Source: a virus
Taxonomy: Duplodnaviria > Heunggongvirae > Uroviricota > Caudoviricetes
IMG/VR virus record: IMGVR_UViG_2657244943_000004
Reading direction: 5' to 3' (one strand)
DNA: 19,187 nucleotides
A program made the translations under genes and the position numbers. The notes under the pieces were generated by a model, which searched no databases, was not told the origin of the DNA, and saw nothing but the letters and a program-made list of their open reading frames with translations. Position 1 is the first letter of the stretch; the number at the start of each line of letters is the position of its first letter. This document shows, one piece after another, positions 2,829 to 16,833 of this stretch.

Positions 2829-3348
2829 CGATCCACCCGCCCACGTTTTCACCGGCCTTAGCTGCAACATTGGAGGCTTTCGCGATTTCAGTTTTCACCA
2901 CATCAAGGTGTGATGGTGAAATGTCCGGATATTTACGCTGTAATGTCAACGGCACACGCACAAGTATCCCCGAAATCTCCTGTGCCACACGTTGCAGAAT
3001 GAAGGTAAACAGTTCAGTTTCCAGCACTACTCCGTCTTCACGGGCATTTTTCAGTTCCTGCGCATCTGCCTGCGCTTTTGTGAGCCTGTAGCGTTCATAG
3101 TCAATGGTGCCGGGTTGTAAATCTGACTCCGCTGCCGCACGCAAATCGTCCAGTTCTTTGCGGAGCTTTTCGTTTTCGATATCAGTTTCCCTCTGCGCAT
3201 ACCACTGAATTGCCATGGCAGTATCAAATACAGATTCAATGCCCTTACTACCTTTGGAGGCGCAAGGGAGTCCCTGAGACTGCCAGCGTTCAATCGTCCG
3301 CGGGTCCACGTTGAAAATTTCGGCAAGCCTCTTTTTATTAACCTTCAT
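2800..3348 (-). CDS. nu1: Terminase small subunit (lambda Nu1 homologue)
   Basis: 182 aa starting [12 protein letters not shown]...; recalled homology to lambda Nu1 (N-terminal winged [34 protein letters not shown]). Lies directly downstream of the cos site. Confidence 0.93.
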
Positions 3349-3514
3349 GAAAACAACCCATTATCAAATACAAGGCCCGACATGAAAACGCCAGAAAAAG
3401 GCATTTTCGGACACTTTCATGTCGGACCTTTACGGATGAAATATTAAAAAAAACAAAAAGTTATATTCGAGAAGTACCGACACGATTTTCCCTGAAAAAT
3501 TTTCATAAATAGTG
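3349..3514 (-). promoter_or_regulatory. cosB-like terminase-binding region between cosN and nu1
   Basis: Position equivalent to lambda cosB. Contains an 11-bp inverted repeat (ccgacatgaaa ... tttcatgtcgg, about 3377-3427) analogous to the inverted repeat in lambda cosB. No binding data. Confidence 0.5.
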
Positions 3515-3545
3515 AAAAACCGCGGGGTCGCCGCCCCGTAGCCTG
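3515..3545. other. cosN cohesive-end site (lambda-like)
   Basis: Minus-strand sequence GGGGCGGCGACCCCGCGGTTTTTCACTATTTATGAAAATTTT closely matches the lambda left end (GGGCGGCGACCTCGCGGGTTTTCGCTATTTATGAAAATTTTCC), then diverges. Core at plus-strand 3526-3537. Confidence 0.85.
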
Positions 3546-4096
3546 CCGGATCACCGGAAAGGACCCGCAAAACCGAGAATAAGTATCAATACTATTTGTG
3601 ATTTGAATGATGCACATCATTGAAACGCCATTCATCCATATACCAGCAGCATTCGGTGTTGCACTTCGTAACTCTGTGACTACGGTTATAAAAGCATTGG
3701 CAACTTTTGCCACCGGCAAGTCTTCAATGGATTTCCCCTGCCGGTTTTTTATTTTCGTCGATGCATAACATTGCATTTACGTCAATAGCAGCTATTGTCA
3801 TTAGTATGTTGCATCGATGCATGGGTGGTATTGGCGGTCTTCGCCGACCGGTTCTGTGTAGCTCCCTATGACCGGTTTTTTATTTCTAAGATTACAGAAG
3901 CCCTTCACTGTATGAAGGGCTTATGTAACTCTTCTTACTTAGTAATTTTCGCACCTTCCGGTATTTCCATGCGTTGAGAAAACCTCATACTATCCGACAA
4001 TAATCATCAATATACGATAAAGACATCTGACCAGATTGCAGTATTAAAAGCACTCATGCAGACTACGCCCCTCATATCATATACAAGGGGATACTG

Positions 4097-4507
4097 ATGG
4101 CTCAGGTTGCCATTTTTAAAGAAATATTTGATCAAGTGCGGAAAGATTTAAACTGTGACCGGTTTTACTCTGAACTAAAACGCCACAATGTCTCACATTA
4201 CATTTACTATTTAGCCACAGGTAATATTCACATTGTATTTGAGAGCGATAACACGGTGTTAATAAAAGGTTTCCATGATGTTATTCATGTTAGCTTTTGC
4301 AGAGACACGCGACTTATAGAAACTTACCTTCATAAGTTGAAATCAAGAGAAATCACATTTCATGAATACAGGGTAAATCTGGCTAAAGCTGGAGTTTTCC
4401 GATGGGTTACAAATATCCACGAACACAAAAGATATTACTATACCTTTGACAACTCATTATTGTTTACCGAAAGCATCCAGAACACGACTCAAATTTTTCC
4501 ACGCTAA
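4097..4507 (+). CDS. ybcV: DUF1398-family protein, YbcV-like prophage accessory protein
   Basis: 136-aa product [20 protein letters not shown]...[27 protein letters not shown] matches my memory of E. coli DLP12 YbcV. Good SD (aagggga) before the ATG. Plus strand, opposite to the late operon. Identity recalled, not searched. Confidence 0.8.
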
Positions 4508-4731
4508 ACCATAACGTCCGGTTTGATCCGCCTCAGTAGCCGGCACTCCCACACAGGAGTTACCAGTCGGTGCTGTGGCCATAGTTAATCTGGGTATACA
4601 GTAAAGATACAGCACATCTGGCATACTTTAATAAACATTAACAATATGAGATTTCAACTCATTGTTTAGGTTTTGTTTAAATTTCCACAAATACGATGCA
4701 CCAAACTTAAAAACACAACGGGAATCACACG

Positions 4732-5025
4732 ATGAAAAAAACGCTACTCACTTTCACACTGGCGCTGCTTATCTCTGGATGTGCTCAACAGACGTTTACA
4801 GTTGAAAACAAACCTACAACAGTAACACCGAAGGAAACCATCACTCATCATTTCTTCGTTTCAGGAATTGGTCAGAAGAAAACTGTCGATGCAGCCAAAA
4901 TTTGTGGTGGCGCAGATAAAGTTGTTAAAACTGAAACCCAGCAAACATTCGTAAATGGATTGCTCGGTTTTATTACTTTAGGCATTTATACTCCGCTTGA
5001 AGCTCGGGTCTATTGCTCACAATAA
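4732..5025 (+). CDS. bor: Bor lipoprotein (serum-resistance lipoprotein of lambdoid phages)
   Basis: 97 aa MKKTLLTFTLALLISGCAQQTFTV...LGIYTPLEARVYCSQ; near-identical to recalled lambda Bor, with signal peptide and lipobox (LISGC). Encoded opposite to the late genes, as in lambda. Confidence 0.92.
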   Translation: MKKTLLTFTLALLISGCAQQTFTVENKPTTVTPKETITHHFFVSGIGQKKTVDAAKICGGADKVVKTETQQTFVNGLLGFITLGIYTPLEARVYCSQ

Positions 5026-5288
5026 TTACATGCGCTGCCCATCAATATGGGCAGTTTTATTTACACTGTTAACCCCTTGGTTGTTTCAGCCGCCGGGGTT
5101 TTACTTGTTATTCACTGGTATGAGTACGACATCTGGCCATTTCATTCCGGGCTTTACTGTCGCCGCGACAGATGCAACGCATCGTATCGCCGTTCAGCGT
5201 AGTGATATAAGCCTCATCCGTTTTCTCTACCTGCAAACATGAAATATTCCCGTTCCGGCAATACTCAATTTTTGCTGCCAGATGGGTA

Positions 5289-5390
5289 TTACGCGGGTAA
5301 AACTCCATACGATACATATCCCCCCAGGACATGCACTTCCTCAACCTGACGACCATCTTCAGTTACCGTAATCTTTTTCAGTGCGTACAT
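5289..5390 (-). CDS. Candidate small ORF (33 aa) with strong RBS downstream of the lysis cassette
   Basis: GGAGG lies 5 nt upstream of the ATG at 5390 (minus); product MYALKKITVTEDGRQVEEVHVLGGYVSYGVLPA. No homology recognised. Overlaps the 82-aa ORF 5108..5356 in another frame. Confidence 0.25.
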   Translation of the reverse strand: MYALKKITVTEDGRQVEEVHVLGGYVSYGVLPA

Positions 5391-5422
5391 ACGTACCTCC
5401 GTTCTTTCGTTTTTTGAACAAT

Positions 5423-5443
5423 AAAAAAGCCACTGAAGTGACC
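5423..5443 (-). terminator. Putative intrinsic terminator after the endolysin gene
   Basis: Minus-strand RNA ggucacuucaguggc followed by uuuuuu, about 15 nt after the endolysin stop. Short stem with one G-U pair. Confidence 0.4.
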
Positions 5444-5455
5444 TTTTCGATGAGT

Positions 5456-6010
5456 TTATAAACCAACGCGCTCTTTCATCCAGCCATAGACAAACGACTC
5501 GTTAGCCTCGCGTTTCTCTGCCAGCGCCAGATAACGCTCACCCTGCGTACAGTTCAGGGCTTTCACCAGTACCAGTTCGCCATCCCTGCCGCGATTTTTC
5601 AGATAAGAACGTAACGCATTAATGGTTCGCGGCCCGATCCCCCCGTCTGTAACTATGTCCGGATACAGCATTCCCTTCTGATTAAACACATTCAGCCAGC
5701 GCTGAAGCATTTTTGTGGCTACCGACGGCCCCATGTTTACCCCGGTATCACACAGTTCTGCAGCAATATCAGGAGACAGGTTTGCCACCTGGTCAAAACG
5801 AGGTCCATACCAATAGTCCGCCTCAAGGATTTCCAGAGCCTGCCCGCGGCTCAAATCACGCATATCACCACGGTAACCATGCGCGCGCGCCACTTTTTCA
5901 GTAATTCCCCACTTCGTCGCTCCGCCTGTATCGTCAGGATGACTGACATAACCCCCCTCTTTTCCGAGGATTTCATCAAAAATTTCATCTCTCGATTTCA
6001 TATCAGCCAC
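5456..6010 (-). CDS. Endolysin, glycoside hydrolase family 108-like with predicted peptidoglycan-binding C-terminal region
   Basis: 184 aa. The N-terminal motif EGGYVSHPDDTGGATKWGIT is characteristic of GH108 N-acetylmuramidases. Last gene of the lysis cassette; start overlaps the upstream gene by 8 nt. Confidence 0.8.
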   Translation of the reverse strand: MADMKSRDEIFDEILGKEGGYVSHPDDTGGATKWGITEKVARAHGYRGDMRDLSRGQALEILEADYWYGPRFDQVANLSPDIAAELCDTGVNMGPSVATKMLQRWLNVFNQKGMLYPDIVTDGGIGPRTINALRSYLKNRGRDGELVLVKALNCTQGERYLALAEKREANESFVYGWMKERVGL

Positions 6011-6281
6011 TCAGGAAAGCAAAAATTTTTGAAACATTACCGCGCGCACGCACTACCATGACACCAAATACCAGGTTCAGCATCACCACCAGCCAGTCTG
6101 CCGGCAACGGATGACCACAGAGATAACTTAACGGCGTTATCGCATACAACAGCATCAGACACCAGGCGCACCACGATATCAGCGGTTTGTGTCGTGACTC
6201 TTTTCTGCGGTAGAAAAAAAGCGTCAGCACGATAACCGTACATAACGCCGCATTCAGTAATCCTGGAAGATTATTTGTCAT
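6003..6281 (-). CDS. Small two-TM membrane protein in lysis cassette (holin/antiholin-like or lysis accessory)
   Basis: 92 aa from the ATG at 6281, preceded by GGAGGAGG; hydrophobic segments LLNAALCTVIVLTLFFY and LVVMLNLVFGVMVV. Overlaps the putative holin stop and the endolysin start. The ORF-track start at 6299 is a GTG. Confidence 0.55.
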   Translation of the reverse strand: MTNNLPGLLNAALCTVIVLTLFFYRRKESRHKPLISWCAWCLMLLYAITPLSYLCGHPLPADWLVVMLNLVFGVMVVRARGNVSKIFAFLSG

Positions 6282-6663
6282 TACCACCACCTCCTCCACG
6301 CTGACGGGAGAACAGACCGGATACCAGTGATGTAATCTCCTGCTGGTGGATGAATGACAGGACTTTTACTGAGAGCACCGACACCAGGACCGCACACAAC
6401 GCATCAACGGAAGCACTGTTAAACCCAATACGTTCCGCCATGTAACCGGCCACACCACGGGCCCCAAGCACACCAACAATAAAGGACACCAGAAAATGTG
6501 CAGCCACACGCCAGGCTGAAAGTGTCTGCGGCATTGTTGCCACAAATAACGCACCAGCGAACGCACCAAATACAATCCCGAAATCCGTCCCGGTAAACAG
6601 CCCGAATACCGTCGCCCCGCCGAGCGCCACAGCAGTGCCGGAACCGGATAAGGGTTCAGACAT
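6271..6663 (-). CDS. Putative holin (about three TM segments)
   Basis: 130 aa from the ATG at 6663 with an AGGAGA RBS; Gly/Ala-rich hydrophobic segments; first gene of the lysis cassette. No similarity to lambda S, so the assignment is positional and topological. Confidence 0.6.
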   Translation of the reverse strand: MSEPLSGSGTAVALGGATVFGLFTGTDFGIVFGAFAGALFVATMPQTLSAWRVAAHFLVSFIVGVLGARGVAGYMAERIGFNSASVDALCAVLVSVLSVKVLSFIHQQEITSLVSGLFSRQRGGGGGNDK

Positions 6664-6862
6664 ATTTATTCTCCTGTAAATAAAAAGGACCATCAGCGGC
6701 CCCGTAACTGACATTTTATTAACGTTTGAAGATATGGATATTTATCAGGGTTTACCGTTTTCTGAACCCTGGATATGTTAAGCATTCAGCCCGCCAGTGG
6801 TGGGACGCTGGCTCATCATAGAGAAAGAGGGATGGCTGATTACCTCTGATCAGGGAAATTAC

Positions 6863-7132: not shown

Positions 7133-7498
7133 CAACTCGCCTTTAGCCTGAGTAAATGCGTCCTCAAGGACGGCAACGAGTCGCAGTTGCGTGCCGTCCT
7201 TTACACAGCGTGTGCAGGCAATACCTTCAGAACTTTCATTATGCCGAGCTCATACAATTTCACCATTTTGTTCAACTACAACGCTCATAATTTTCTTACA
7301 CTTTTTTAATAAACCACACCAATAACAACCATCACCGATACCTTTTGTATGCTGTTATTTTGCATTACGGTGTAACGGCAAGAGCCACCTCCCCGCCCAC
7401 CAACACACCATCAGCCAGTACCGACATCAACCGCCTAGTGAAATCCACTGCCACTACCAGAAACAACAGGATGGCAGCCAGCACAAGGCCCGCACTTT

Positions 7499-7924
7499 TC
7501 ACAGATACTGCTCCAGTGGTAACTGAAGCGCCTGTGCAATTTTCTTGAGCTGCGCTTCTTCATCCGGACCAATGCCATCCTGATCAGCGATATCCAGACA
7601 GAGGCAAAGCACGTCAACCGCCTCAGTTGTCCCCGCCACATCAGCCAGCTCACGTAATGCATGCGCATTCGCACTACGCGGTGACGCTTCATAACGGGCG
7701 CGGATATTGGCGCTCATCTGGGCAATCTCACCAGAGAACGGTGCAAAAGCAGGAAGCGCAGCAATGGTTTTCTCCAGTACTGCGATTTCTTTTGCGTCGC
7801 AGGTGCCGTCGGCATATGCAATGGAATATGCGCCCCAGACGGTCGCCTCCACCGCATCACGGTTCTCCATCTTCTTCACTTCAGTGATGGCCTTGCGGGT
7901 TTTCTTTTTGAAAATACCTAACAT
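7499..7924 (-). CDS. TerB-family (tellurite-resistance TerB-like) protein
   Basis: 141 aa; N- and C-terminal acidic motifs typical of TerB (YADGTCDAKEIAVLEKTIA ... DIADQDGIGPDEEAQLKKIAQALQL). Own transcription unit, downstream of the terminator at 8059-8082. Confidence 0.7.
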   Translation of the reverse strand: MLGIFKKKTRKAITEVKKMENRDAVEATVWGAYSIAYADGTCDAKEIAVLEKTIAALPAFAPFSGEIAQMSANIRARYEASPRSANAHALRELADVAGTTEAVDVLCLCLDIADQDGIGPDEEAQLKKIAQALQLPLEQYL

Positions 7925-8903: not shown

Positions 8904-9989
8904 TTAGCTCCTGTTCTTATCTAATTGTGCATTTCGCAATTTATCGTTCAGCACCAATATTTCACCAACTGTTTGTTCAAAACGCCCGGACTCAAGTTCA
9001 ACCCCAATCGTGCGACGCCCCAATCCCATTGCTGCTTTTATTGTTGCCCCCGATCCCATAAAAAAATCCGCAACCACATCCCCCGGACGACTGCTGGCAG
9101 AAATTATCTGACGCAACATATCCGCCGGTTTTTCGCAGGGATGCTTACCCGGATAATACTGTACGGGCTTATGCGTCCAGACATCCGTATAAGGAACGGC
9201 GGCCGATACAGAAAAATAACGCCGCAGAGATTTGTATTCCTCAAGCAGACTGGCATATTGCCGGTTCAGTTCACTGTATGTGCTGACCAGCAGTTGGTGT
9301 GGCGTTGCCAGCTCCCCACGCTGGTGTTTTTCTTCTGCAACACGCGCGAACAGCGCCTGCAGTTTTCTGTAATCAGCTTCGTTCGGTAACTGCCACTGAC
9401 TGGTACCAAACCAGTGCGACACCATGTTTTTCTTTCCGGTGGCTTCCGCTATCTGTTTGGACGTTATTCCCAGTGATTCACGCGCATCACGAAAGTAAAA
9501 AATCAGCGGGGCCATGACGTGTTGTTTAAGCTCGCGCTCCTTTGCCGCATAGCCGGCATTTTTTGGCTGATATGGCCCCTGATAATGTTCGGCAAACAGA
9601 ATGCGCTCTGTTGCCGGGAAATACGCCCGCAGGCTTTCTTTGTTGCACCCGTTCCAGCGTCCGGACGGCTTCGCCCAGATAATGTGGTTCAGCACATTAA
9701 AGCGCTCACGCATCATGATTTCGATATCAGATGCCAGGCGATGACCACAAAACAGGTAAAGACTTCCGGCAGGCTTCAGTACCCGCCAGAACTGAGCCAG
9801 ACACTGGTCCAGCCATTTCAGGTAATCATCGTCTCCCTTCCACTGGTTATCCCAGCCCTCGGGCTTCACTTTAAAATATGGCGGGTCTGTGACTATAAGA
9901 TCGACAGAGTTTTCCGATAAGGTCTGGATAAATTCCAGGCAATCGGTGTTGATTAACTCACAACTGGATATTTTTACAGTATCAACCAT
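8904..9989 (-). CDS. DNA methyltransferase, beta-class amino-MTase (N6-adenine or N4-cytosine), probably orphan
   Basis: 361 aa; catalytic DPPY motif near the N-terminus (LIVTDPPYF) and AdoMet motif near the C-terminus (VVADFFMGSGAT), i.e. beta-class order; about 120-aa insert between them. Architecture resembles YhdJ-type MTases. No restriction endonuclease gene nearby. Confidence 0.88.
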   Translation of the reverse strand: MVDTVKISSCELINTDCLEFIQTLSENSVDLIVTDPPYFKVKPEGWDNQWKGDDDYLKWLDQCLAQFWRVLKPAGSLYLFCGHRLASDIEIMMRERFNVLNHIIWAKPSGRWNGCNKESLRAYFPATERILFAEHYQGPYQPKNAGYAAKERELKQHVMAPLIFYFRDARESLGITSKQIAEATGKKNMVSHWFGTSQWQLPNEADYRKLQALFARVAEEKHQRGELATPHQLLVSTYSELNRQYASLLEEYKSLRRYFSVSAAVPYTDVWTHKPVQYYPGKHPCEKPADMLRQIISASSRPGDVVADFFMGSGATIKAAMGLGRRTIGVELESGRFEQTVGEILVLNDKLRNAQLDKNRS

Positions 9990-10139: not shown

Positions 10140-10337
10140 TCACTGCGGAAGGCGTCTGTAACAACCGAACTGATAATCTGCCAGACCCGCCATAACAAGC
10201 TGGGTCAGTATTAACTGGCAGCGTTCGCGTGAAAGGTAAGTATTCTGCGCAATTTCCCCAACTGTTGCCGGTTCAGTGACGCTTAATTCATTAAACACCA
10301 CTCTGGCTGTTTCTGTCATATCCTGCTGTTTTAGCAT
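10140..10337 (-). CDS. Small putative winged-helix DNA-binding protein (65 aa)
   Basis: Product contains PATVGEIAQNTYLSRERCQLILTQLVMAGLA, which looks like an HTH/winged-helix. Purine-rich region before the ATG. Between the membrane protein and MTase genes, same strand. Confidence 0.45.
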   Translation of the reverse strand: MLKQQDMTETARVVFNELSVTEPATVGEIAQNTYLSRERCQLILTQLVMAGLADYQFGCYRRLPQ

Positions 10338-10510
10338 GTCTTTTTCTCTTTATTGGTTAACGTGACATACCAATAACTCTTGTCGAAGAAGCCAGCAAGC
10401 TGAAAGACCGGTATTAATAACCACCTGCACATTTTATGTACCGAACCATTTTTCTGGCATAAAAAACCTCTCAATGGCGGGCGGTAAAAATCTTTGTTAC
10501 TCAAGAAATT

Positions 10511-11224
10511 TTAACGCACTCTGACTGTATTAATTTCAAAATCATTAATATTTCCGCTATTAAATATAACGAATTTCTTACCCCCACTCCTGTATGATTT
10601 CGATAACACCAGACGATCATCATAACGCGCAATAATGTAATACCATACATTCTCATAGTGGATCGCCTGATATTCCCTCTTAAACTGTGGTTTGTACCAA
10701 CCGGCAATAAGAGAGAATGCCCAGAAATAAATCATAAACCCAGCCATCATGAACTCAATTCGGTGATGGCGAATAAAAGACATTTCCGAAAAACATTTGA
10801 CTGAAACAAGTCTTCTTCCAGACCTGACAAAAAGCGTGATTGTAAAGGCAGCAAGAATGCAGAAAATCAGTACATCTGGCTCAACATGCTGATGAATTAC
10901 CGAAAACTCCAGAACAGGTGGAATAAAAAGCAGCAATATCGCGAGAAAAAGCCGGATAAAACTCAAATTTTGTATATTGCGCTTTTGTTTTATGCCCAAA
11001 AAGAAAACAATACCAACTCCCCATCCAATAAGGAATATAACGATAACTGTCACAGCATAAAACAAACTTCGTGCAACATCATCGACACCAGCCCCGACAA
11101 CCCACCATGGAAAGCCATAGTAAAATGAAGTACCCCATCCATAGAAATAAGCGCTTCCCCATCCTAGACAGCCCATATAAGCAACAAAAAGTGAAGAGTT
11201 TCTGAGCAGAGCACTGTCATTCAT
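10511..11224 (-). CDS. Multi-pass membrane protein of unknown function (237 aa), AT-rich accessory gene
   Basis: Several hydrophobic segments rich in aromatic/Gly residues; C-terminal soluble tail of about 60 aa. Visibly more AT-rich than flanking phage genes. First gene after the tR'-like terminator. Confidence 0.6.
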   Translation of the reverse strand: MNDSALLRNSSLFVAYMGCLGWGSAYFYGWGTSFYYGFPWWVVGAGVDDVARSLFYAVTVIVIFLIGWGVGIVFFLGIKQKRNIQNLSFIRLFLAILLLFIPPVLEFSVIHQHVEPDVLIFCILAAFTITLFVRSGRRLVSVKCFSEMSFIRHHRIEFMMAGFMIYFWAFSLIAGWYKPQFKREYQAIHYENVWYYIIARYDDRLVLSKSYRSGGKKFVIFNSGNINDFEINTVRVR

Positions 11225-11366
11225 AGTAACACCATTAACAACTCAAAAATATCAACACATATTACATAACAAATTGGATTCCATGCAGTCAAGGGGCGTC
11301 ATTGATGGAGAAAGTATTGGCACAATCGTCATCACGTTTAATGTCTATGCCATTTTTTGGGGGGAT

Positions 11367-11392
11367 AAAAAACCCGCTCGGTCGCGGGTTTT
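11367..11392 (-). terminator. tR'-like intrinsic terminator downstream of Q
   Basis: Minus-strand RNA CCCGC-GACCGA-GCGGG followed by UUUUUU; about 90 nt downstream of the Q stop and about 45 nt downstream of the candidate promoter start. Confidence 0.6.
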
Positions 11393-11442
11393 ACTAGCTT
11401 TGCCATCACGTATAAAAACGGCAAAATATCAGATTTACACGA

Positions 11443-11471
11443 AATATATGCGTTTTAATCTACTTTTGCAA
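11443..11471 (-). promoter_or_regulatory. Candidate late promoter (pR'-like), minus strand
   Basis: Minus strand TTGCAA (11471..11466), 17-nt spacer, TATATT (11448..11443), overlapping the 3' end of Q; predicted start near 11436. Sequence inference only. Confidence 0.45.
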
Positions 11472-11478
11472 TACTTTG

Positions 11479-12144
11479 CTATGAAAATGCCGCCTTTTGT
11501 TTTGAACGTGTTCTCTCCACTAACAATAAAGCTTCACTATCCAGCCGATGAAAAATGTGTTTCATTGCAACCCAGTGACCAGTAAATGTCTTGGACCAGT
11601 TTTTGGTTGTTACTCCCACCAGTAACGCCAGTTCCTGGTATTCGTAACCTTCCCCACCAAAAAGCTCAGCTTTTACCGCCTGCGCCACCAACCAGATCAA
11701 CGTCTTCAGGCGCACCAGAGTTTTTCCTGCAATTTTTCTGGTACCGGATTGAGCATTAAATTCAGTCCACGCCCACTGCGTTATCGCGATCTGATGCTCC
11801 CAGCAAATGCTACCGCTGTAACACCACAGCAGCCAGGCTTTATGATGTTCTTCAAGAGACAGAACGGCGCGTCGCCATGATGATGTCGAAAACTCAACCG
11901 GACTGACCAGGGCAATTGATGAACCTTTCGCCAGCGATTGCTTTCCCGGGATCGGTGGATTATCCAGCGTTACTATTTTTCCAGTGACCTTATCGCGGTA
12001 CCGGATTTTTTTACGTCTGTAACGCCCTGTATTGAACATGGCATTCTCCTGCCAGGCTTCAAGCTGACCTTTTGTTGCTCCACTCAAATCAGCGGTGGCG
12101 ATCGTGAGCTGCTCACGCACAAACTGTAAATACTGGTTATTCAT
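11479..12144 (-). CDS. Putative late-gene antiterminator (Q-like), 221 aa
   Basis: Called mainly by synteny: directly downstream of rusA (ATG overlaps the rusA stop as ATGA) and directly upstream of the promoter/terminator pair and lysis genes. No Cys zinc-finger as in lambda Q. The family is not confirmed. Confidence 0.55.
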   Translation of the reverse strand: MNNQYLQFVREQLTIATADLSGATKGQLEAWQENAMFNTGRYRRKKIRYRDKVTGKIVTLDNPPIPGKQSLAKGSSIALVSPVEFSTSSWRRAVLSLEEHHKAWLLWCYSGSICWEHQIAITQWAWTEFNAQSGTRKIAGKTLVRLKTLIWLVAQAVKAELFGGEGYEYQELALLVGVTTKNWSKTFTGHWVAMKHIFHRLDSEALLLVERTRSKQKAAFS

Positions 12145-12500
12145 GCGCACTCCAGTTCTGTGATTTTTATCCCCAGCCGACCACCGGGAACAACCTGACC
12201 GCGCATAATATTAACTTCATCAAACTGCTCGTCGTCGATAAGCAGTCCCGCATGTGTCAGTGCATCCAGTGGTGCTTTCAGAATATTGTCCAGGTCACGA
12301 CGGCGCTTATCCGGTGGCTCTGCAATAATTTTTATTGCCAGCCTTCCGGACAGATTTAATTTCAGCCGCTGCTGGCGAACAATAAGCGCCACATCCCGGC
12401 GATAACGCTCCCCTGCTTTTGATACAAAATATGTGCTGCCACGACGACGCCAGTAGGTATTTACCGTCGGCGGGTAAGGCAAAACAAATTCTATCCCCAT
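12141..12500 (-). CDS. rusA: Holliday-junction resolvase RusA
   Basis: 119 aa from the ATG at 12500; RRDLDN motif (PPDKRRRDLDNILKAPLDALTHAGLLIDD) and overall resemblance to E. coli RusA. Typical nin-region position. Confidence 0.9.
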   Translation of the reverse strand: MGIEFVLPYPPTVNTYWRRRGSTYFVSKAGERYRRDVALIVRQQRLKLNLSGRLAIKIIAEPPDKRRRDLDNILKAPLDALTHAGLLIDDEQFDEVNIMRGQVVPGGRLGIKITELECA

Positions 12501-12512
12501 CAATAACCTCTT

Positions 12513-13490
12513 TTATCCGAGCACGCCGGTTGCAAAGGCGTGATCAAGAAAACGAAAAATTAAATCAACCTGAGAACCATGCTTTTCTTCGAACGCCAAC
12601 GGATCTGCATGAAGCTCGTTATGATGTTTACGACACAACGGTAACGTGAAAATATCGTGGGCCTTTGTTCCCATTCCGCCCTGACCATGACCTATCAGGT
12701 GATGGGGATCGTCAGCTGGCTTACCACAGCACGCACACGACTGTGTCTTTACCCAGCGTGTGTATTTCTCATTTACCCAACGGCGACGTTTAGGTCGCTT
12801 CATGAAAGATTCCGGGGACTCAGGATCAACGGCGATGCTTACCACCGCCTTTTCCTGTGGTGAGTTTTGTTGCTGGTGGACGTGAGGCGGTAGCGCAATA
12901 TTTTTTGTGCGCTGCTTCAGTATGCTGGTGGCTGTCTGTTCTCCCGGTACGATGTCGCTCTCGCGATACACAGAGAGGATTTTTTCCACCGGTAATCCCA
13001 ACGAACGACGTGATACTGCCTCAGGTAGAGCATCCACCACCTGATTGCAAACCGCCCACCAGGATAATTCAGCCAGCGATAATTCCCGCTCCTGCGTGCC
13101 ATTCATTGCGTGACGTATAACCTCAAGCATCCAGGCTGTCAGATTTTGTTGAGCAAGTTGCTCGAGTGATTCCGATGTCTGGTCGCGCAGCTGGTTGTCG
13201 CAGTGCCAGCACAATACCATCGCGCCGGTACCGTAACGGTGAATAACGGTTTCACTATGGTGGTAATCACCATGAGGCCACTGGCAGGATTTGACATGGC
13301 GCAGTAACCAGTCAGACAGTGCACCAGCGCCGCCAGCAGCACGAATCACTCGTTTGTTACTGAAAAACGGCAGTAATGATTTATCCTCCGCCAGCGGCTG
13401 GCGAACGGTAGGGACGACTCCGGACGGCAGACCGCGCATGCTTTTTGGTTCCGGCTCCACCAGTACTCTGTCGTTATGGAATACCGACAT
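12513..13490 (-). CDS. DUF968-family prophage protein with HNH-like Cys/His motif
   Basis: C-terminal CACCGKPADDPHHLIGHGQGGMGTKAHD...LCRKHHNELH resembles the DUF968/YdfU-type nin-region protein. ORF track start 13562 is a GTG; the ATG at 13490 is an alternative, so the N-terminus is uncertain. Confidence 0.7.
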   Translation of the reverse strand: MSVFHNDRVLVEPEPKSMRGLPSGVVPTVRQPLAEDKSLLPFFSNKRVIRAAGGAGALSDWLLRHVKSCQWPHGDYHHSETVIHRYGTGAMVLCWHCDNQLRDQTSESLEQLAQQNLTAWMLEVIRHAMNGTQERELSLAELSWWAVCNQVVDALPEAVSRRSLGLPVEKILSVYRESDIVPGEQTATSILKQRTKNIALPPHVHQQQNSPQEKAVVSIAVDPESPESFMKRPKRRRWVNEKYTRWVKTQSCACCGKPADDPHHLIGHGQGGMGTKAHDIFTLPLCRKHHNELHADPLAFEEKHGSQVDLIFRFLDHAFATGVLG

Positions 13491-13563
13491 TGATTCACGG
13501 CCTGGCTTAACGATAACCACCCCGAGTTCCGGTACCGGTACAGGTCGAAGTAATACCCGCACG

Positions 13564-14226: not shown

Positions 14227-14457
14227 TCAAGTTAAGTGTGGGTGCATTGAGGATGCCTGACTCATCAGAGGTGGCGAGGGATTTCTCCCTCGCCTGGTCT
14301 CTAACTCCTCAGGTTCGTAAGCTGTGAAGACAGCGACCTCCGTTTGGCTGGTTCGGATTCGTACCTCACAGAGATCTTTCCTCGTTACCAGTGCCGTCAC
14401 AATGACAGTTAAACAGATGACAATCAGGGCGATTAACATCGCCTTATGCTGCTTCAT
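14227..14457 (-). CDS. hok: Hok/Gef-family type I toxin gene with C-terminal read-through extension (or pseudogene)
   Basis: From the ATG at 14457: MKQHKAMLIALIVICLTVIVTALVTRKDLCEVRIRTSQTEVAVFTAYEPEE, a near match to chromosomal Hok/Gef toxins (about 50 aa). The codon at 14302-14304, where the stop is expected, is TTA, so the frame continues 26 codons to TGA at 14227-14229. Which hok paralogue this is remains uncertain. Confidence 0.85.
   Translation of the reverse strand: MKQHKAMLIALIVICLTVIVTALVTRKDLCEVRIRTSQTEVAVFTAYEPEELETRRGRNPSPPLMSQASSMHPHLT
14273..14294 (-). other. Perfect 9-bp hairpin in the hok 3' region
   Basis: ggcgaggga-tttc-tccctcgcc; position corresponds to the 3' stem-loop of hok-family mRNAs. 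It lies inside the extended reading frame. Confidence 0.6.
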
Positions 14458-15482: not shown

Positions 15483-16181
15483 ATGAAAAAAGAACTTGAA
15501 ACCATACTGCCTGAGTTTGGTGAGGCAATTCGCCCTTACGTTTATAGTTACGTAACAGCAAACAAAAATGCCAATGCCAAGCACGTCCTGTTTATGGCTG
15601 GTTCGCCTGCTGCAGGTAAAACCGAGCTCTTAAATCGTCTTTTAGAACAACATGGCATCACAAACATTGTTCGAATTGATGCTGATGATTTTCGCTGGTG
15701 GTTCCCCTACTACAATGAAGAGAACTCTGTGGACTATCAGAGACCTGCCTCCAGAATGGTCGATTTTATCTACAAAAAAGCGCTATCTGAAGGCTATCCC
15801 ATTGTTATGGACTCTACTTTCTCCAGTATAGGTATTGCGGAGAGAAACTTTGATCTGGCCCTGAAGGCTGGTTATCAGGTAGCACTGAATTACGTCTATT
15901 TTGATCCGGCTTACGCGTGGGTTTTTGCCCAAGCCCGCTCTCGTAAGGTTCCGTTAGAGGTTCTTAAAGCGAACTTTTTCAAGAGCAGAGAGACCATTGA
16001 ACATATGCTCGCGAAATATGCAGGCCTATTTACACTCAATGTTTATCATCGACGGGAAGATCCTGAAAATGATGGTCAGTTCGTGGTCGACTATACTCCT
16101 AACGTGACCCTTGAAAACTGGACTACCTCCCATAGCTGCCCATATTCAGACGTTAGCGATCTAGCGCATTTAGGTGTATAA
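15483..16181 (+). CDS. Zeta-toxin-like P-loop kinase (AAA-like NTP-binding domain)
   Basis: Walker A GSPAAGKTE at residues 40-48, followed by VRIDADDFRWWFP, resembling the catalytic Asp region of zeta/PezT-type kinases; 232 aa. Family assignment from motifs only. Confidence 0.7.
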   Translation: MKKELETILPEFGEAIRPYVYSYVTANKNANAKHVLFMAGSPAAGKTELLNRLLEQHGITNIVRIDADDFRWWFPYYNEENSVDYQRPASRMVDFIYKKALSEGYPIVMDSTFSSIGIAERNFDLALKAGYQVALNYVYFDPAYAWVFAQARSRKVPLEVLKANFFKSRETIEHMLAKYAGLFTLNVYHRREDPENDGQFVVDYTPNVTLENWTTSHSCPYSDVSDLAHLGV

Positions 16182-16200: not shown

Positions 16201-16833
16201 GTGTATATGTCTGTTAAAACTGAAGCCATTAAACCAGTTGCTGAAATTTCGTTGTTCGATGCATTCGGACCTAACGTGAGCGAGCGGGTACAAGCCATCA
16301 ACCGGAAGGCCGCTGAGCTTTCTATGGCTGATATGGCTCAGGTAATGGACGTGACATTATCGTCTAGGAAGAAACTGGAAGTAACTGCTGAGAGCAAATA
16401 TATTCTCGATTTTCCTCAATGGCTAGAAGTCAATGCACGGAAACCTGGAGTTTCTTTTGACATGAAAGCATACACTTCTGTTGAAGTTAAAAAGATGCAT
16501 GTTCCTGACTTTCGCCAGTTCCTTCCTGTAGGTGCAAATATGTTGCATACCTATTCACCAATCGGTAAAACGGGCCTGCAAGGAATTCATGATTATTTAA
16601 TCGGTGCTGTTTCATCTAAACTTCATCACTTGCAAGGTGTCGGAGTTGATGAGGGCACGTTTAAAATACTTATCCGCTATGAAGATGCTAAAACGGGTGC
16701 TCCCCGCAATGATATAGTTGAAGCTGAGTCGACAATTAGCCCAAGTTCTTTCACTAGGCTCAAGCCCCGTGTGAAAAAACTTCGCAGAAAAGGTCATGAA
16801 ATGGCGATGCATGCACTAATTGCCAAAAAATAG
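16201..16833 (+). CDS. Hypothetical protein (210 aa), translationally coupled partner of the zeta-like kinase
   Basis: Starts 20 nt after the kinase stop with a strong SD (AAGGAG); followed by a terminator. No motif recognised; basic C-terminal tail (KPRVKKLRRKGH). Confidence 0.6.
   Translation: MYMSVKTEAIKPVAEISLFDAFGPNVSERVQAINRKAAELSMADMAQVMDVTLSSRKKLEVTAESKYILDFPQWLEVNARKPGVSFDMKAYTSVEVKKMHVPDFRQFLPVGANMLHTYSPIGKTGLQGIHDYLIGAVSSKLHHLQGVGVDEGTFKILIRYEDAKTGAPRNDIVEAESTISPSSFTRLKPRVKKLRRKGHEMAMHALIAKK

Follow-up and report, generated by a model that had tools for sequence, protein, structure and literature searches.

In lambdoid phages, Shiga toxin and various further conversion genes are found in the slot that follows the late antiterminator gene Q, and morons to which no function has been assigned are the rule there. 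Classical morons and exclusion proteins such as lambda bor and lom, HK97 gp15, P22 SieA and T4 Imm are non-essential, atypical in composition, equipped with a promoter of their own and placed between conserved phage genes, and they act on the envelope of the lysogen. Here we describe a gene from this slot in a lambdoid prophage, contained in the virus record IMGVR_UViG_2657244943_000004 (Caudoviricetes), whose 19,187 nucleotides were analysed as a whole and are referred to below as the window. The gene encodes a predicted inner-membrane protein of 237 residues. We propose that it is a moron of the TfpB/STM1630 family whose product acts as a lysogenic-conversion factor in the envelope or in host interaction, a statement to which, taken as a whole, we assign a probability of about 0.5. 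We are far more confident than this figure suggests that the protein belongs to the family and that the gene is a moron, and far less confident in the mode of action.

To our knowledge, the function of Moraxella TfpB, the name-giving member of the family, was not established in the older literature. More is on record for the Salmonella homologue STM1630, which was horizontally acquired, is bound by H-NS, has its own experimentally mapped start site and -10 element, is expressed in medium that induces Salmonella pathogenicity island 2 (SPI-2) and within macrophages, and is dispensable for growth in LB, while its promoter is inactivated in all ST313 strains examined (PMC6785131 S1 Text). Colonisation screens in calves and chicks reportedly showed attenuation of STM1630 mutants, and deletion of the gene in strain 4/74 led to more replication in macrophages (PMC6785131 S1 Text). 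The gene groups with others that are co-regulated with SPI-2 (PMC2639726) and its deletion was hypermotile in one screen (PMC4219756). A further point of comparison is given by the TfpY-like proteins, non-enzymatic inner-membrane adaptors that interact with pilins and possess three transmembrane (TM) helices, a mixed beta-alpha-beta domain and a three-stranded antiparallel sheet (PMC11841053).

Assignment to the TfpB/STM1630 family

The gene, the two parts of its product that matter most for what follows and the promoter-like box upstream of it are located in the window as follows.

10511-11224, minus strand: TfpB/STM1630-family gene with ATG start, encoding a predicted inner-membrane protein of 237 residues; an annotated coding sequence
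10991-11197, minus strand: TM1, first periplasmic loop and TM2 (codons 10-78) with the motif AY.YGWG...YYGFPWW...ARSL, the most conserved part
10514-10681, minus strand: C-terminal five-stranded beta domain of about 55 residues (codons 182-237; AlphaFold2), predicted to be periplasmic
11263-11292, minus strand: promoter-like box TTGACT (11292-11287), 18-nt spacer, TG-n-TATGTA (11271-11263); proposed from conservation, with putative activity

E. coli ARS-C301 contains a prophage with 100% identity to the window, and the open reading frame (ORF) at 10511-11224 is annotated there as WP_057108854.1. The initial annotation of the window held that nothing in the sequence identifies the family of this protein and called for a remote homology search. 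That search leads to PF27470 and phrog_1521, and the earlier view can no longer be maintained. The protein matches phrog_1521 of the PHROGs collection over residues 17-237 (E=6.7e-86; the function of this phrog is unassigned), and a word-indexed search returned 104 homologues at E≤1e-3, all of which carry a precomputed assignment to PF27470, including one that is 95% identical to the window protein. The short name of PF27470 in the locus tables is TfpB. Since the Pfam-A copy that we scanned predates PF27470, the window protein is assigned to it through these homologues. In RefSeq, NCBI gives the name ‘STM1630 family protein’ to the product of an E. coli gene with 89.5% DNA identity, and the protein P0069 of Salmonella enterica, with 48% identity over the full length, adjoins sseJ; because of this location, which is that of STM1630 in the supplement of PMC6785131, we take P0069 to be STM1630. 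The similarity also extends from end to end to the intact TfpB of Moraxella bovis (BLASTP, 29% identity over 233 residues, E=1e-26).

The window protein contains the N-terminal family motif A-x9-AY-x-YGWG-x3-YYG-x-PWW ... ARSL and the C-terminal motif YF...G..KP...Y...YY.L...L, all invariant and near-invariant columns of three family alignments (A2, A4 and A5) are present in it, and its 237 residues fall within the family range of 230-262. Judged from these sequence comparisons, the protein belongs to the TfpB/STM1630 family (PF27470, phrog_1521), and with 104 homologues and a phrog match the frame is not a chance ORF. The window protein had no match in Pfam-A, NCBIfam or a sequence profile search of the PDB, a scan of PADLOC-DB v2 gave no family at E≤1, and its PHROGs matches were confined to families of unassigned function. 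A literature search on PF27470 found nothing, and one on ‘TfpB’ found only unrelated chemistry and anaesthesia work and an unrelated PilB-like motor of Acinetobacter. The protein thus clearly belongs to a family that has been catalogued but not characterised functionally, and it stands outside the described defence, holin and pilin-accessory families as far as these were compared here. A reading as a lipoprotein was also considered and rejected, as its MGC sequence is not a lipobox and the cysteine is not conserved.

Predicted architecture and the conserved face

The initial annotation had described a polytopic protein with a soluble C-terminal tail and proposed topology and structure prediction, and these predictions return five TM helices and a C-terminal beta domain. 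The polytopic nature and the separate C-terminal part of the earlier description hold up, and AlphaFold2 models the latter as a folded domain and not as a loose tail. Hydropathy alone reveals four clear TM segments and a weakly hydrophobic N-terminal segment rich in aromatic residues and glycine. The structural model (m705f42e7c0ca) was built from 53 diverse sequences and has a mean predicted local distance difference test score (pLDDT) of 79 and a predicted template modelling score of 0.72; a run with 32 close homologues was poor (pLDDT 60.8). The long helices of the model span residues 10-36, 47-78, 89-111 (kinked), 116-135 and 155-181, short amphipathic helices lie at 143-153, and the strands of the beta domain at 184-190, 193-201, 204-208, 218-222 and 231-235 have pLDDT values of about 79-88. 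Among the segments predicted to be cytoplasmic, the N-terminus has 1 lysine or arginine, loop 78-90 has 3 and loop 134-156 has 6, and neither of the predicted periplasmic loops (32-51 and 109-117) has any. By the positive-inside rule this distribution argues for a cytoplasmic N-terminus and a beta domain in the periplasm, and we therefore predict a five-TM inner-membrane protein of that orientation.

Conservation is concentrated in TM1 and in the first predicted periplasmic loop. Within Enterobacterales the mean pairwise identity is 0.85 in TM1 and 0.81 in loop 1, and it is lowest, at 0.31-0.33, in TM4 and the second cytoplasmic loop. Over the 53 diverse members, the invariant and near-invariant positions are occupied only by glycine, alanine, proline, tyrosine and phenylalanine, and no acidic, basic, histidine, serine or cysteine residue is conserved among them. 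The conserved set thus offers no polar residue from which an active site or ion path could be built, and this speaks against both an enzyme and a transporter. Foldseek gave no significant match to the PDB (best E 0.8, to MscS channels and to SH3- and Sm-like small barrels), and its best match in BFVD had an E of 0.06. From the model and the conservation pattern we conclude that this is probably a non-enzymatic membrane protein with its working surface at the periplasmic face of the inner membrane.

A one-gene cassette with a promoter-like box

Several properties of the locus suggest that the gene moves together with a short upstream region. The sequence CTTGAC and, in register with it, TTTGTTATG are invariant in three contexts, namely the window, the shared region of phage 434 and O157 prophages, and a plasmid of enterotoxigenic E. 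coli (ETEC) that encodes LT. The consensus over the three is CTTGAC(T/G), an 18-nt spacer and TG-T-TATG(T/A)(A/G), and it is because of this conservation that we read the box as a putative promoter. Further upstream, the DNA of the ETEC plasmid is unrelated to that of the phages. When the 74 nt before the start codon are compared without gaps and in register, 47 are identical between the window and the ETEC plasmid and 39 between the window and phage 434, values that none of 5000 shuffled sequences reached; gapped global identity of the upstream regions was uninformative, as shuffled sequences score similarly. On the other side, the contexts of the TfpB-like gene cease to be homologous at its stop codon, which leaves the downstream ORF of 65 residues outside the mobile cassette. 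No conserved or stable terminator comes straight after the stop codon (fold z = -1.16), and the next terminator-like site, which may be the end of the transcript, follows the 65-residue ORF (10153-10136).

The initial annotation had noted an atypical, AT-rich composition and an aromatic-rich product, and both are borne out. The ORF has a GC content of 39.1% (36.6% at third codon positions), compared to 46.3% over the whole window and about 50% in the adjoining Q/RusA region, a departure from its surroundings that characterises a moron in the Hendrix/Juhala sense, and it lies in a low-GC trough at about 10200-11600. Phenylalanine, tryptophan and tyrosine together make up 19.8% of the residues of the protein.

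Phage 434 offers a natural comparison of presence and absence. In its annotation the region with the TfpB-like gene is part of what was replaced in 434B, so the gene is present in the one and absent from the other. At this place 434B, which has been propagated as a phage, contains the syntenic segment of DLP12 (PMC9119081). DLP12 contains nmpC in the post-Q slot and no TfpB-like gene. Since 434B is viable and forms plaques without it, the gene is dispensable for lytic growth. A box that is kept across unrelated flanks and a phage that is viable without the gene point to a putatively self-promoted, non-essential moron. The evidence as a whole agrees with the definition of a moron except that a dedicated terminator is lacking, and the promoter is a putative one.

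Distribution and genomic contexts

The word-indexed profile search did not recover the members from Neisseria, Pasteurellaceae and Moraxella, which come from an exhaustive search of representative proteins and from a genome scan. The former, a profile search of 1.84 billion representative proteins, gave only 71 at E≤0.001, all in the family length range or shorter fragments, and the ten clusters that were looked up carried no functional name. Named sources among the 71 are Neisseria, Pasteurellaceae (Actinobacillus, Gallibacterium, Avibacterium and Pasteurella) and Klebsiella; other searches added Moraxella, Conchiformibius and more Pasteurellaceae, together with another enterobacterial subfamily that is more distant and occurs in Klebsiella, Raoultella and Enterobacter. 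The named host organisms are animal-associated taxa.

By blastn, related DNA is present in 1197 of 5426 complete E. coli genomes, at up to four places per genome, and covers at least 80% of the gene in 460 of them. Only three of 50,697 phage records carry a TfpB-like gene. Phages 434 and 2B8 (56% identity) have it in the post-Q slot, as do O157:H7 and other prophages; in phage 434 and two chromosomal prophages the slot is behind an LpxR-YlcG-Q82-like module. The family is found in 157 plasmid records (106 from Shigella, 37 from Escherichia, 13 from Klebsiella and one from Salmonella). The copy on the invasion plasmid of Shigella sonnei (pINV) lies among insertion sequence elements, a porcine ETEC plasmid has a copy 0.9 kb from eltAB, an IncFII plasmid of Salmonella carries another, and a decayed copy is beside the iro island. 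On pUMNK88_Ent (positions 2987-5714 of locus L036) the copy, 75% identical at the protein level, is divergent from eltAB and near estB and astA.

Other members are chromosomal. S. enterica, S. arizonae, S. diarizonae and Citrobacter rodentium have a copy at a common fixed site, and in Pasteurellaceae and Neisseriaceae the copies are solitary genes between housekeeping-like genes, with the neighbours judged by eye from sequence. Clustering of the neighbours at 25 loci revealed no conserved partner gene. Aggregatibacter actinomycetemcomitans has two paralogues at distinct chromosomal sites (L015/L017 in DSM 8324 and L019/L029 in HK_961), and both sites recur across strains (L014, L015, L017, L019 and L029).

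In Moraxella, the genome scan found homologues in M. bovis, M. lacunata, M. equi and M. oblonga. In M. lacunata tfpB lies between a promoterless pilin segment and an expressed pilin gene and adjoins the piv invertase gene, the arrangement that has been published for tfpB, and of 27 loci compared from other genomes, only those of Moraxella have pilin motifs flanking the family gene. The gene is intact in M. bovis (258 residues), has a frameshift near codon 195 in the type-strain assemblies of M. lacunata and M. equi, and has several in M. oblonga; these frameshifts represent either decay or assembly errors. Next to piv in M. lacunata (L010, 2794-4269, minus strand) there is also a gene for a polytopic protein of 491 residues with a C-terminal domain that by eye is sulfatase- or phosphoethanolamine-transferase-like, and it might be a pilin-modifying enzyme.

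The lipid A deacylase gene lpxR precedes the TfpB-like gene closely, in divergent orientation, in phage 434 (L005, 2166-3125), in O157-type prophages (L037, 1667-2626) and on the C. rodentium chromosome (L002, 4863-5823), and Salmonella holds sseJ at that place. The site beside the TfpB-like gene seems to be a hotspot for virulence-gene insertion. A functional pairing of lpxR with tfpB was considered and rejected, given that the left-hand neighbour in Salmonella is sseJ instead.

Gene order in the window

The window corresponds to the immunity-to-terminase portion of a lambdoid prophage, read on the minus strand. The features around the TfpB-like gene are listed in the order of reading.

12513-13562, minus strand: DUF968 gene
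12141-12503, minus strand: RusA gene
11479-12150, minus strand: late antiterminator Q (phrog_304 ‘anti-termination protein Q-like’, E=1.8e-104; annotated as Q in ARS-C301)
11443-11471, minus strand: PR'-like late promoter TTGCAA-17 nt-TATATT (from a consensus scan; putative promoter)
11367-11392, minus strand: tR'-like intrinsic terminator with a 9-bp GC-rich stem, a 6-nt loop and a U run (read from the sequence)
10140-10337, minus strand: winged-helix-like ORF of 65 residues (phrog_331, E=1.4e-37)
10153-10136, minus strand: terminator-like hairpin after the 65-residue ORF, GC hairpin and T run (consensus/terminator scan)
8904-9989, minus strand: DNA methyltransferase of 361 residues (PADLOC MTase_II, E=3.5e-152)
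7499-7924, minus strand: TerB-family gene
7365-7502, minus strand: DUF3927 mini-gene
6271-6714 and 6003-6299, minus strand: two holin-family genes
5456-6010, minus strand: GH108 endolysin

The terminase is last in this order, after the lysis genes. The PR'-like site aligns with the equivalent post-Q region of phage 434 and O157 prophages. The tR'-like hairpin, AAAACCCGC-GACCGA-GCGGGUUUU followed by a U run (11392-11367), aligns with the annotated terminator of phage 434, to which it is homologous; an 86-nt stretch that includes it folds at -24.1 kcal/mol (z = -3.43), and none of 200 shuffled sequences was as stable. A simple terminator scan of the window did not list this hairpin. No ORF lies between the hairpin and the ATG of the TfpB-like gene, and with Q, the PR'-like site and the hairpin preceding it the gene is, as first described, the first after the tR'-like terminator in the slot between Q and the lysis genes.

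Several of the neighbours deserve a remark of their own. The 65-residue ORF has weak winged-helix matches (Lrs14-type, E=0.12) and its counterpart in phiP27 is annotated as a TrmB-family regulator, which places a small putative DNA-binding protein between the moron and the late-region methyltransferase. No restriction partner is annotated near the methyltransferase, which is probably an orphan methylase of the anti-restriction type. The TerB-family and DUF3927 genes (7365-7924) are paired upstream of the holins. In phage 434 and the O157 prophages the DUF3927 gene, annotated as ‘TciB’, comes directly after the TfpB-like gene, and this adjacency indicates that small membrane morons recur together in the Q-to-lysis slot. 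After the endolysin, where spanins would be expected, there is a frameshifted hypothetical gene (about 5108-5390). A zeta-toxin-family gene (15483-16181, plus strand), followed by a hypothetical gene of 210 residues (16201-16833, plus strand), lies on the strand opposite to the early genes of the prophage, and the two may be a toxin-antitoxin or defence pair. The ARS-C301 prophage also has an annotated truncated hokD (Hok/Gef family) pseudogene at 14305-14457 on the minus strand.

Proposed role and its alternatives

Based on these data and the Salmonella literature, we put forward a hypothetical role for the TfpB-like gene in the lysogen. An AT-rich mobile cassette of one gene, consisting of a sigma-70-like promoter box and the ORF, would have been inserted directly downstream of PR' and tR', where the gene would be transcribed late under antitermination by Q. 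In the lysogen, additional transcription would start at its own promoter, which would probably be silenced by H-NS and induced by conditions. We propose that the product acts in a non-catalytic manner, by using its conserved surface to bind a partner on the periplasmic side of the inner membrane, and that this binding alters a property of the lysogen envelope or surface, be it a filament or secretion machinery, motility or host colonisation. The protein would then be a lysogenic-conversion factor and not a phage-replication, lysis or transport protein. It is the recurrence of the family in virulence-linked mobile DNA, together with the Salmonella data, that makes lysogenic conversion the best-supported reading.

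A number of points weigh against this proposal. The Salmonella phenotypes are mild and come in part from screens, and the hypermotility of the STM1630 deletion is missing from the phenotypes that were taken further once the mutants had been cleanly re-constructed (PMC4534456). A literature search found no phage-challenge test of any family homologue. The association with virulence islands and plasmids could represent hitch-hiking. The predicted topology comes only from the positive-inside rule and the structural model. Finally, a consensus promoter scan did not report the box at 11263-11292, which it missed because the weak -10 hexamer, TATGTA, is without the final T.

Among the alternatives, the one that survives best is superinfection exclusion or abortive infection, the possibility raised in the initial annotation, in which the protein of the lysogen would block the entry of phage genomes at the periplasmic face of the inner membrane or trigger membrane failure. 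A solitary cassette that is patchily distributed among E. coli genomes, sits in the moron slot of a prophage with a putative promoter of its own and encodes a protein that varies in TM3-TM4 and at the end of the beta domain is consistent with such a factor, as is the predicted periplasmic location of the conserved surface, where the phage DNA-entry machinery acts. However, the protein matches no PADLOC family and no fold in BFVD or the PDB, the gene is rare in phage records, and most of the family is found outside phages. The stable syntenic copies on the chromosomes of the Salmonella subspecies and Citrobacter are a poor fit, the copies of Pasteurellaceae lie between what by eye are housekeeping-like genes, and the phenotypes of the homologues concern the host (colonisation, macrophage replication and motility), not phages. 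With STM1630 being bound by H-NS, induced under SPI-2 conditions and linked to colonisation, we favour conversion over exclusion, to which we give a low probability. Equally tentative, and in our judgement rather improbable, is the broader idea that the family as a whole comprises unrecognised mobile single-gene inner-membrane factors, whose periplasmic aromatic hairpin and beta domain bind either pilin-like or other envelope-spanning machinery or the phage DNA-entry apparatus.

An accessory role for type IV pilin-like subunits was also considered, in which the protein would bind such subunits in the manner of TfpY or FimB and tune the assembly of a pilus or of the pseudopilus of type II secretion. 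LT is a substrate of type II secretion, and one copy on an ETEC plasmid is beside eltAB; the name-giving member is located inside the Moraxella pilin inversion cassette, by pilin segments and piv; and the outline of the protein is like that of TfpY-like proteins, which have about 235-245 residues, N-terminal TM helices and a periplasmic C-terminal domain (PMC11841053). Adjacency to pilin genes is nevertheless restricted to Moraxella among the 27 loci, where tfpB is frameshifted in three of the species (M. lacunata, M. equi and M. oblonga), and five TM helices with an all-beta domain differ from the three helices and beta-alpha-beta domain of the TfpY-like proteins. There is also no pilin gene in the window, in which the neighbours are Q, the 65-residue ORF and then the DNA methyltransferase, and we regard this role as quite unlikely. 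An orphan immunity protein, which would protect against a membrane-targeting bacteriocin or a contact-dependent or type VI effector arriving from the periplasmic side, is very unlikely, since about 35 contexts examined include no linked toxin gene and neither Pfam-A nor NCBIfam reveals similarity to immunity families; a solitary mobile gene in host-associated bacteria of dense communities, with several paralogues per Aggregatibacter genome and a conserved face that is predicted to be periplasmic and has no conserved catalytic residues, would otherwise suit it. A transporter, channel or membrane enzyme, including a lysis-related holin or antiholin, is suggested by a polytopic product, the late operon upstream of the lysis genes and weak Foldseek matches to MscS-type channels, but it is extremely unlikely given that those matches have E≥0.8 and a probability of about 0.1, that no polar residue is conserved family-wide, that Pfam-A, NCBIfam and PDB searches were negative, that most members are found outside phages, that phage 434B lyses cells without the gene, and that the gene, separated from the downstream holin genes by about 3.8 kb with the methyltransferase and TerB-like genes, neither adjoins the endolysin gene nor is co-inherited with it as part of a lysis cassette.

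Significance

The present analysis adds an identification of the family, a predicted topology with a conserved periplasmic face, and a promoter box that moves with the gene. It also links Moraxella tfpB, Salmonella STM1630 and the post-Q moron of phage 434 and E. coli prophages, which no source that we found joins. The findings will not surprise a phage biologist, given how regularly such morons occupy this slot. If the protein is an exclusion factor or a modulator of surface machinery it would be a useful addition, and otherwise it is one more uncharacterised moron. In the former case, the prophage of the window, phage 434, O157 prophages and plasmids of Shigella and ETEC would share a new one-protein system for superinfection exclusion or for modulating surface machinery, which would also account for the Moraxella tfpB ORF of the pilin switch, to which no function has been assigned since its first description. 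Phage 434 versus 434B and K-12 lysogens are tractable models for the family.

Comparison with known systems

No relation in sequence or fold was detected (PADLOC, BFVD and PDB) between the TfpB family and the classical morons and exclusion proteins, and unlike these the family is mostly found outside phages. The TfpY/TfpZ/TfpX and FimB-like proteins of Pseudomonas aeruginosa and Dichelobacter nodosus are comparable in size and have a bundle of membrane helices at the N-terminus and a C-terminal domain in the periplasm, but they are always encoded beside pilA, whereas the window gene is not beside a pilin gene. Judged from descriptions of their architecture, the resemblance may be one of mode of action.

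The relationship to M. bovis TfpB is of a different kind, as that protein has the same N-terminal motif (AY.YGWG...YHGYPWW...ARSL) and a C-terminal YYIL beta region. It is chromosomally encoded, flanked by pilin segments and piv, and has a C-terminal extension of about 20 residues. Closer still is STM1630 (SL1344_1560), with 48% identity over the full length and 238 versus 237 residues, whose gene is AT-rich like that of the window, has its own promoter and adjoins the virulence gene sseJ; in contrast to the window gene, it is at a fixed chromosomal site and not in a prophage late operon, and its upstream region is unrelated to the promoter box of the window.

The closest counterpart in position is gp68 of phage 434 (CPT_434_68, ‘putative membrane protein’), which is identical to WP_001302581.1 of O157:H7 and 56% identical to the window protein. 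Its annotated start is nine codons further upstream than that of the window gene, it follows a Q82-like antiterminator and the LpxR-YlcG module, unlike the Q type of the window, and it is succeeded by DUF3927 and a NanS-type esterase where the window has the winged-helix ORF and the DNA methyltransferase. Within these different surroundings the gene occupies the same position in both, the first late gene after Q and the terminator, and is preceded by the shared promoter-like box.

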